Below, piece by piece: positions 55,901 through 58,900 of a DNA stretch of 64,000 bases. The DNA lies in the NCBI RefSeq assembly GCF_051903065.1, contig NZ_CP178438.1. One strand, 5' to 3'. Within the stretch, counting starts at the first letter, position 1. The number at the start of each line of letters is the position of its first letter. Position numbers: made by a program. The DNA comes from Escherichia coli (GTDB taxonomy: Bacteria > Pseudomonadota > Gammaproteobacteria > Enterobacterales > Enterobacteriaceae).

Positions 55901-58900
55901 TGCGTTGTTTAATATCCTGATCCTGTCCGGGATAATAAACCTGATTAAAACCGGGCGCGGGGGTAATGGCATTTAATTCGCGCATGGTCTGGCTAAGATG
56001 TTGACGGAATAATTCGCTGGAGGAGAAAAAGTTCGGGTTAATAACTACATGTAATTGCCCCAAATTACGCCCGGCGTGTAAATCGTCATACATCGAACTC
56101 ACCTGTCGCCCGAACGGTAAGCCGAGTAAGACGCCTGAGAGAACGTCAATCATCATCATCAGGCCATACCCTTTCGGCCCGGCTGCGGGGAGCAGAGCAT
56201 GTACCGCGAACGGATCGGTTGTTGGTGCACCGTTTTTATCGACCGCCCAGGTATCCGGGATAGACATATTACGCGAGCGGGCGTCGAGCACTTTTCCCCA
56301 TGCCTGTACGGTAGTCGCCATATCAAAGGTAAGGATCTCGTCGCCTTCTCCCGGCGCGGCAAAGGCCAGTGGGTTAGTACCGTAGTAAATTTCCGCGCCG
56401 CCAAACGGCACCACCATTGGATCGGACTGGCACATCGAAATGCCAATTAATCCGGCGCGGGCTGCCCGCTGCACAAAATAAGAGATTGCGCCGCTGTGAC
56501 CCATCCGGCTGATACCGACCACCGCAACGCCATTTTGCTGGGCGGTTTTGATGGCATGTTCCATACCCATTTTCGCCGCGACCTGTCCGGCGGCATTGTC
56601 GGCATGTAAAATTGCCGAGCACGGCCCGGTTTCCTCAAGACGAAACTCCGGTTCGCGGTTGGTGCCGCCTTTTGAAATGCGTTCCGCGTAGTATTCCACG
56701 CGCACCGCGCCATGAGAGTGGATCCCTCTGGCATCGGCGTAAACCAATACTTCAGCCACGGTTGCAGCGTGCTCACGTTTTAACCCAGCCTGGCAGAGTT
56801 TATTCTCAATTAGCTGGTGGAGTGTTTCCCGACTGATTTTCATCTGTCTTCCTTTTTAACGACGGTGTGAAGCATGACTGCAATTAACATACAGGGAAAA
56901 TATCTGGATTATGTGATCCAGACAGGCAAAAAAATATAGTTAGAATTTATTTGATAATCCGCTCGCTTTTAACCTGGTTTTTAAAACAACCACGCTTATT
57001 AAAAAATAACACGTAATAGCATGGCGGTTATTTGAATTCTTTTGTTAATAATCCCTGTGTGATATTCATCACCTTATTTACCCGTTGTCATCGATACCGT
57101 AATCGCCACATTAACACTGCTCGTGCAATTGCCATGGGTGCAATTTTTAAGGAGTTGTTATGATCCACGCCTTTATTAAAAAAGGGTGTTTTCAGGATTC
57201 GGTCAGTTTAATGATTATTTCACGAAAACTCAGCGAATCAGAAAATGTTGATGATGTTTCCGTAATGATGGGTACGCCCGCCAGGTAATGACTCCAACTT
57301 ATTGATAGTGTTTTATGTTCAGATAATGCCCGATGACTTTGTCATGCAGCTCCACCGATTTTGAGAACGACAGCGACTTCCGTCCCAGCCGTGCCAGGTG
57401 CTGCCTCAGATTCAGGTTATGCCGCTCAATTCGCTGCGTATATCGCTTGCTGATTACGTGCAGCTTTCCCTTCAGGCGGGATTCATACAGCGGCCAGCCA
57501 TCCGTCATCCATATCACCACGTCAAAGGGTGACAGCAGGCTCATAAGACGCCCCAGCGTCGCCATAGTGCGTTCACCGAATACGTGCGCAACAACCGTCT
57601 TCCGGAGCCTGTCATACGCGTAAAACAGCCAGCGCTGGCGCGATTTAGCCCCGACATAGCCCCACTGTTCGTCCATTTCCGCGCAGACGATGACGTCACT
57701 GCCCGGCTGTATGCGCGAGGTTACCGACTGCGGCCTGAGTTTTTTAAGTGACGTAAAATCGTGTTGAGGCCAACGCCCATAATGCGGGCTGTTGCCCGGC
57801 ATCCAACGCCATTCATGGCCATATCAATGATTTTCTGGTGCGTACCGGGTTGAGAAGCGGTGTAAGTGAACTGCAGTTGCCATGTTTTACGGCAGTGAGA
57901 GCAGAGATAGCGCTGATGTCCGGCGGTGCTTTTGCCGTTACGCACCACCCCGTCAGTAGCTGAACAGGAGGGACAGCTGATAGAAACAGAAGCCACTGGA
58001 GCACCTCAAAAACACCATCATACACTAAATCAGTAAGTTGGCAGCATCACCCGCCCGCCAATAAAGCGTTATTAGATACCACAGGTTTCTGGCATGACGA
58101 TTTTAATAACGCCACGCCGAACGATATTTGCGTGGCAATTCGTAGCGAAGCGGCGGATGCGGGGATCGCGCAGGCGATTATGCAGCAGCTTGAAGAGGCG
58201 CTAAAACAACTGGCGCAGGGGTCAGGCAGCAGCCAGGCGTTGACGCAGGTGCGTCGCTGGGACAGTGCCTGTCAGAAATTACCCGATGTCAATCTGGCGC
58301 TGATTTCAGTGGCTGGCGAGTATGCGGCGGAGCTGGCGAATCAGGCGCTGGATCGCAACCTCAACGTGATGATGTTCTCCGATAACGTCACGCTGGAAGA
58401 TGAAATCCAACTTAAAACCCGCGCGCGGGAAAAAGGCTTGCTGGTGATGGGGCCGGACTGCGGTACGTCGATGATTGCCGGCACGCCGCTGGCTTTTGCT
58501 AACGTGATGCCGGAAGGCAACATTGGCGTCATTGGCGCTTCCGGTACCGGGATTCAGGAGCTGTGTTCGCAGATTGCGCTGGCAGGGGAGGGAATTACTC
58601 ACGCGATTGGCCTTGGCGGCCGCGACCTCAGCCGTGAAGTGGGCGGCATCAGTGCGCTGACGGCGCTGGAGATGCTCAGTGCAGACGAGAAAAGCGAAGT
58701 GCTGGCATTTGTTTCAAAACCACCTGCCGAAGCGGTGCTTCTGAAAATTGTTAATGCCATGAAAGCAACCGGCAAACCGACGGTGGCGCTGTTTTTAGGT
58801 TATACCCCGGCGGTGGCCCGCGACGAGAATGTCTGGTTTGCCTCCTCGCTGGATGAGGCCGCACGCCTGGCTTGCCTGCTTTCACGCGTTACGGCGCGAC

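Follow-up and report, generated by a model that had tools for sequence, protein, structure and literature searches.

IS1 polarity is known from classical work to lower the expression of downstream genes. Pairs of IS1 copies also bracket composite transposons, in which the copies are direct (Tn9) or inverted (Tn1681). The anatomy of IS1 includes an A6C frameshift motif and a promoter overlapping the IRL end, and its transposition is mainly replicative (PMC12428005). IS1 prefers AT-rich targets without a clear motif, and in mutation-accumulation lines IS1A inserted less than 5 kb from an existing IS1A 21 times, versus 2.6 times expected (PMC5009759). The three genes called fdrA, ylbE and ylbF now bear the names allF, allG and allH; their products make up oxamic transcarbamylase, and with allK (ybcF) they constitute an operon (PMC11326118). 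All three are required, and deletion of allF abolishes the production of oxamate from allantoin and diverts the flux to oxalate (PMC11326118). Counted from the ATG, the AllS/ArcA-dependent control region extends from about -237 to -83 (PMC12535856).

The window, which is the whole 64-kb stretch of Escherichia coli DNA that was analysed, carries a complete IS1 of the IS1A type within fdrA (768 bp, 57284–58051, minus strand). The element was assigned from its length and ends, and its transposase genes are antisense to fdrA. Its left boundary reads GGTAATGACTCC and its right boundary ends in GGCAGCATCACC. Comparison of the ends placed IRR at 57284–57306 and IRL at 58029–58051, and the two termini, GGTAATGACTCCAACTTATTGAT and GGTGATGCTGCCAACTTACTGAT, agree with each other in 18 of 23 positions; they are the imperfect inverted repeats of about 23 bp characteristic of the IS1 family. 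The insA gene (57721–57996, minus strand) encodes a zinc-finger/HTH repressor of 91 aa that matches NF033558 and NF050000. The insB' reading frame (57299–57802, minus strand) is expressed only as an InsAB' fusion after a programmed -1 frameshift, for which the A6C slippery motif AAAAAAC is present at 57739–57745 on the minus strand (IS coordinate 307). The modelled frameshift joins the two frames, as in other members of the family, into an InsAB' of 232 aa, which matches the NCBIfam IS1 family transposase model NF033558 with 245 bits (cut-off 100) over profile positions 1–199 of 199. A consensus scan also detected a promoter-like site, CTGCCA-16-TATGAT, which overlaps IRL and is directed into insA (58017–58044, minus strand); it is consistent with the known weak IS1 promoter. 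The element is 100% identical to copies annotated as "IS1-like element IS1A family" in many RefSeq E. coli genomes, and in 7186 records the best match to it reached 99% identity or more. IS1 was found in 4970 of 5426 complete genomes, at a median of 11 places per genome. Judged from its intact coding capacity and from an identical copy 3.2 kb away, the IS1 in fdrA appears functional.

Perfect 9-bp repeats of CGCCCGCCA abut the two ends of the IS1, at 57275–57283 (fdrA nt 116–124) and at 58052–58060, and their length is that of the IS1-family target duplication, which is 9 bp and in some cases 8 bp. The chance of a 9-mer match at a fixed position is about 4e-6. On the plus strand of the window the sole further copy of CGCCCGCCA is at 41219, so the flanking repeat is no chance feature. 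The original prediction, made from the sequence alone, had claimed a target duplication of its own for this second IS1, and the two perfect repeats bear this out. It had also placed the interruption of fdrA after codon 41. The interruption is real, but the exact point needs correction: the IS1 follows nt 124, with which codon 42 begins, and thus it sits inside that codon.

When the IS1 and one repeat (57284–58060) were deleted in silico, a continuous ORF of 555 aa starting at 57160 was restored across the flanks, in agreement with the prediction. The alignment to an intact fdrA that had been proposed along with it gave the same answer: over 1668 of 1668 nt the restored gene is identical to the fdrA that is annotated as intact (WP_047624147.1) in E. 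coli ECNB21-M121 (NZ_CP083585.1), which represents the empty site with one CGCCCGCCA only. The restored 555-aa product matches the NCBIfam FdrA model NF004760 with 1037.9 bits (cut-off 433) over positions 1–555 of 555. The gene order, with glxK, then allE-allC-allD on the minus strand, fdrA-ylbE-ylbF-ybcF on the plus strand and purK-purE, is that of the standard allantoin cluster. As annotated for the identical region of both 23CRST031 and ECNB21-M121, fdrA is divergent from allD and is followed by ylbE, ylbF and ybcF, which is the context expected for FdrA/AllF. The three downstream genes, ylbE/allG (59614–60873), ylbF/allH (60884–61699) and ybcF/allK (61696–62589), are intact on the plus strand by ORF and annotation. 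The 419-aa product of ylbE/allG (59614–60873) had no match in NCBIfam release 20.0, although oxamic transcarbamylase is the enzyme to which this gene is now attributed.

Two pieces of fdrA remain in the window. The 5' stub (57160–57288, plus strand) consists of 41 native codons, an AGG (Arg) and a TAA stop, the last two both formed with the IS1 end, and encodes 42 aa ending in GTPAR. It carries the Pfam domain HMA_AllF_N, and the break falls inside this N-terminal domain. The orphaned 3' part (58052–59604, plus strand) comprises native nt 116–1668, including the stop. Because the control region lies upstream at -237 to -83, the IS1 at +124 leaves the promoter intact and cuts the coding sequence. 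The 41 native residues before the stop, the broken HMA_AllF_N domain and the allF deletion phenotype strongly suggest that fdrA is inactivated. Since oxamic transcarbamylase cannot work without its AllF subunit, anaerobic allantoin breakdown should lose its oxamate branch. From the 42-aa truncation and the published phenotype of allF deletion, we infer that oxamic transcarbamylase activity is lost in this strain. The expression of allG, allH and allK is probably reduced by IS1 polarity. With the further insertion in allE described below, a defect of the strain in the anaerobic use of allantoin is predicted.

The insertion might be incompletely inactivating, if transcription from within the IS1 or at its end drove a remnant of fdrA together with allGHK and preserved partial function. 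The longest ORF in the 3' part starts with GTG at 58132, is in frame and encodes 490 aa. The equivalent 490-aa product keeps the CoA_binding and Ligase_CoA domains, and the remnant with these catalytic-looking domains could in principle be translated. IS1 ends were reportedly found by Prentki et al. in 1986 to create hybrid promoters, and a weak candidate for one, TTGGCA-N16-AATAAA, was seen by eye at the IRL/fdrA junction. However, the consensus scan gave no outward plus-strand promoter at this junction, and the N-terminal HMA_AllF_N domain is split in any case. Moreover, plasmid complementation minus one subunit restored only 7–16% of oxamate production (PMC11326118). Residual function is therefore considered very improbable, and the loss of AllF function remains the preferred reading.

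Among the 5426 complete genomes, the exact fdrA::IS1 insertion was found only in 23CRST031 (NZ_AP045800.1) and 23CRST027 (NZ_AP045789.1), both from human faeces in Santo Domingo, Ecuador. PGAP annotates both fdrA pieces as pseudogene fragments in these two genomes; in 23CRST031 the 5' stub is a partial pseudogene and the 3' part is "missing N-terminus". The allele is thus already known, as an annotated pseudogene in two RefSeq genomes. Junctions, orientation, flanks and the allE::IS1 partner are the same in 23CRST031, 23CRST027 and the window, whereas the two Ecuadorian genomes carry two extra IS903B copies, one between allE and allC and the other near 27,700. No IS903B was found in the 64-kb window, in which 54554–54563 and approximately 27,695–27,706 are the empty sites of these two copies. 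Positions 54013–57389 of the window recur without any difference as a 3377-bp contig (JATALX010000090.1) of the draft assembly GCA_036912935.1. This contig is bounded by the two IS1 copies, spans both inner junctions and is without IS903B, so the window represents this clone in its IS903B-free state. GCA_036912935.1 probably belongs to this very strain or, if not, to the nearest relative that has been sequenced. The fdrA::IS1 allele is a useful clonal marker common to 23CRST031, 23CRST027 and GCA_036912935.1, and the IS903B-free state is either ancestral or sister to the two Ecuadorian genomes.

Comparison with 23CRST031 also touched other parts of the window. An intact ORF of 6925 aa (1335–22112, plus strand) corresponds to the gene annotated as "BapA-related adhesin SiiEA"; in 23CRST031 that gene is labelled a frameshifted pseudogene. 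Internal repeats of several kb in the ORF are 73–76% identical, and the 9-mer TGGCGGGCG occurs 13 times inside it. Beside this giant adhesin, the gene for a type I secretion permease/ATPase (22116–24277, plus strand) is split into overlapping ORFs of 585 aa and 252 aa. Because it is split here and annotated as frameshifted in 23CRST031 too, the exporter of the adhesin may be defective.

The position of the insertion in fdrA is not confined to this clone. Exact look-up of the 42-aa stub peptide returned 23–24 contigs of public draft assemblies, of which ten places were examined. The IS1 begins directly after CGCCCGCCA in all ten contigs, IRR first as in the window in six and IRL first in four, and at least four IS1 end variants are present among them. 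Their left-flank haplotypes differ from the window by 29–72 SNPs in 3.16 kb, and most pairs also differ from each other. Once near-identical pairs are merged, at least eight further flank haplotypes remain, so that at least nine independent IS1 events have occurred at fdrA nt 124, the window counted; this count concerns the one site and need not be exceptional for IS1. These results indicate that fdrA nt 124 is a recurrent natural target site of IS1 in unrelated E. coli. Since the same nucleotide is reused in unrelated strains, identical IS junctions are no evidence of shared ancestry here. A search of the accessible literature for fdrA together with IS1 yielded nothing relevant, and no description of this chromosomal site came up in it. 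For allE::IS1, look-up of the junction peptide gave a single match, which is uninformative on recurrence because this search needs 78 nt of IS1 in the contig and is biased accordingly; it did, however, lead to the draft contig identical to the window.

Neighbouring positions are used by IS1 as well. In the same protein cluster, other members end in translated IS1 IRL and correspond to insertions after nt 119, 134 and 136. The complete genomes contain simple IS1 insertions in fdrA with target duplications at nt 68–76, 128–136 and 160–168, and the site at nt 175–183 is used in both orientations. Deletion-type IS1 junctions were found at nt 100, 105, 107, 198, 259 and 408, and intergenic sites at -297, -120 (twice, with 8-bp and 9-bp duplications), -89 (both orientations) and -46. 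The junctions of other genomes are spread over the allD-fdrA control region and over fdrA up to nt 410, equivalent to approximately 56860–57570 of the window. The nt 105 junction is identical in DLI.6n and 1506, and all their IS1 differences are distal to the junction, so that the two may go back to one event. Very numerous draft contigs ending at fdrA nt 128 and nt 134 were left out of the counts, as they carry no IS sequence. Several of the junctions mark the ends of IS1-associated deletions that extend to ybbP, rhsD, gcl, hyi, ybbW or glxK, by which the allantoin cluster is partly or fully removed. Directly downstream of allE, at about 52860–52890, there is a REP-like palindromic sequence (AGGCCTGATAAGCGAAGCGCATCAGGC) at which many short-read contigs start.

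The insertion site is at the border between the AT-rich promoter/5' region of fdrA (32–38% GC) and the GC-rich gene body, a position that fits the published preference of IS1 for AT-rich DNA. Of the 9 positions of the duplicated 9-mer, 7 are G or C, with the GC core ACGCCCGCCA. Several further readings were tried and rejected. An apparent orientation bias, with nearly all IS1 copies near fdrA antisense, was an artefact of a search that joined same-strand pieces only, and a query with the IS flipped found equal numbers. Enrichment on the kilobase scale is not supported: 20–27 genomes per orientation were found per 1568-nt query at fdrA and allE, versus about 20 when estimated roughly from the mean IS1 density over all genomes (59,338 chromosomal places, 5,426 genomes). 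The target does not resemble the ends of IS1 significantly, as the best match is 15 of 23 (nt 88–110) and 92 of 500 shuffles reach this score. The IHF consensus WATCARNNNNTTR, with at most one mismatch, was not found closer to the site than nt -12 or +403. It can be proposed tentatively that fdrA nt 116–124 with about 40 bp around it is a true site-specific IS1 hot spot, with a determinant beyond AT-richness, IHF sites or IS-end resemblance, and that the repeated knock-outs are perhaps also favoured in some niches, through selection against the AllFGH oxamate branch; we regard this proposal as possible but rather doubtful. The stretch of fdrA nt 100–136 could be used as a naturally occurring site in the chromosome at which to study what determines target choice by IS1.

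Because this site is recurrent, the fdrA::IS1 allele could have been imported by homologous recombination from an E. coli that already carried IS1 there, as many other lineages have IS1 at exactly nt 124. However, the flanks of the insertion are identical or nearly identical to those of the empty-site genome ECNB21-M121, with 0 differences in 3162 nt on the left and 2 in 5949 nt on the right. In contrast, all ten other carriers examined are separated from the window by the SNPs in the left 3.16 kb given above, and the IS1 in fdrA is identical to the neighbouring copy in allE. Import is therefore very unlikely. The near-identical flanks in the empty-site ECNB21-M121 argue instead that fdrA::IS1 is recent and arose within this lineage.

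The neighbouring copy lies in allE, at 53354–54121 on the plus strand, and was recognized by sequence comparison; it has its own 9-bp duplication, GCGGCGCTT, with which it occupies 53345–54130. The IS1 at 57284–58051 is the exact reverse complement of this element (53354–54121) with 0 mismatches, which confirms the earlier description of the second IS1 as identical and inverted. The segment of 3162 bp between the two copies (54122–57283) contains the 5' part of allE, allC, allD, the allD-fdrA control region and fdrA nt 1–124. It is collinear with the IS-free ECNB21-M121, in native orientation and 100% identical. Such an identical inverted pair bracketing allE'-allC-allD-'fdrA could suggest that the IS1 copies and the 3.2 kb between them are one unit, formed either as a composite transposon like Tn1681 or by intramolecular replicative transposition with duplicative inversion, and the mainly replicative mode of IS1 transposition would suit this (PMC12428005). 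However, each IS1 has its own direct 9-bp repeat (GCGGCGCTT and CGCCCGCCA) and the outer flanks share none. The halves of allE and fdrA are placed around each IS1 as two independent insertions predict. The own repeats and the collinear native interior exclude a composite transposon, a duplicative inversion and later recombination between the copies, and an origin as one unit is extremely unlikely. By their arrangement in the sequence, the IS1 copies in allE and fdrA are read as two simple insertions. Misplacement of a multicopy IS1 (about 37 matching places in related complete genomes, a classic source of misassembly) into fdrA during assembly has practically no probability and is excluded, since the same junctions occur in two independently assembled complete genomes, an independent draft contig spans both inner junctions, and the perfect 9-bp duplication is what genuine transposition leaves behind biochemically.

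Every genome found with one of the allE and fdrA insertions of this haplotype also carries the other, so that either copy may have come first and been the donor of the other. The excess of insertions near an existing copy (21 versus 2.6) makes local hopping the simplest account of identical copies 3.2 kb apart (PMC5009759), and we infer that a nearby identical IS1, such as the allE copy at 3.2 kb, was the most likely donor of the IS1 in fdrA.

The following course of events is proposed and is considered very probable as a whole. By simple insertion, an IS1A would have entered fdrA (allF) at its 5' end, where a staggered 9-bp cut by the transposase at nt 116–124 would have left CGCCCGCCA duplicated on both sides. 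The event would be recent, inside the clone of E. coli 23CRST031, 23CRST027 and GCA_036912935.1, with a nearby identical IS1 as the donor by local hopping. Shortening of AllF to 42 residues would then cost the cell the AllFGH oxamic transcarbamylase and, with it, the oxamate branch of anaerobic allantoin catabolism, and IS1 polarity would probably lower the output of the allF promoter for allG, allH and allK. With both allE::IS1 and fdrA::IS1, the strain would be unable to use allantoin normally. Seen in this way, fdrA::IS1 is routine IS-driven gene decay in an IS1-rich lineage, a textbook insertional inactivation of a known gene.

Compared with known systems, the element itself is indistinguishable from IS1A of E. 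coli K-12. Both have the same 768 bp, imperfect 23-bp ends, insA and insB', the A6C motif, an InsAB' of 232 aa and a 9-bp duplication; no difference was found in the element, and its location alone is particular. Like the IS1 composite transposons, the window has an identical IS1 pair around a segment of 3.2 kb, with both IRL ends outward. Unlike them, its unit shows no sign of ever having moved: no outer duplication is shared, the would-be cargo is the native allE-allC-allD-fdrA DNA in its chromosomal place, and the assignment to this class was rejected. The insertion site is similar to the classical IS1 hot spots in lacZ/Tn9, pBR322 and the bgl regulatory region, where independent IS1 insertions fall on one nucleotide or no more than a few tens of bp apart, in both orientations and near AT-rich DNA. 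In fdrA, nt 124 has been struck at least nine times and its neighbours nt 119, 134 and 136 have also been hit. It differs from these classical sites in its GC-rich 9-mer, in having no nearby IHF consensus and in having no significant resemblance to the IS1 ends.
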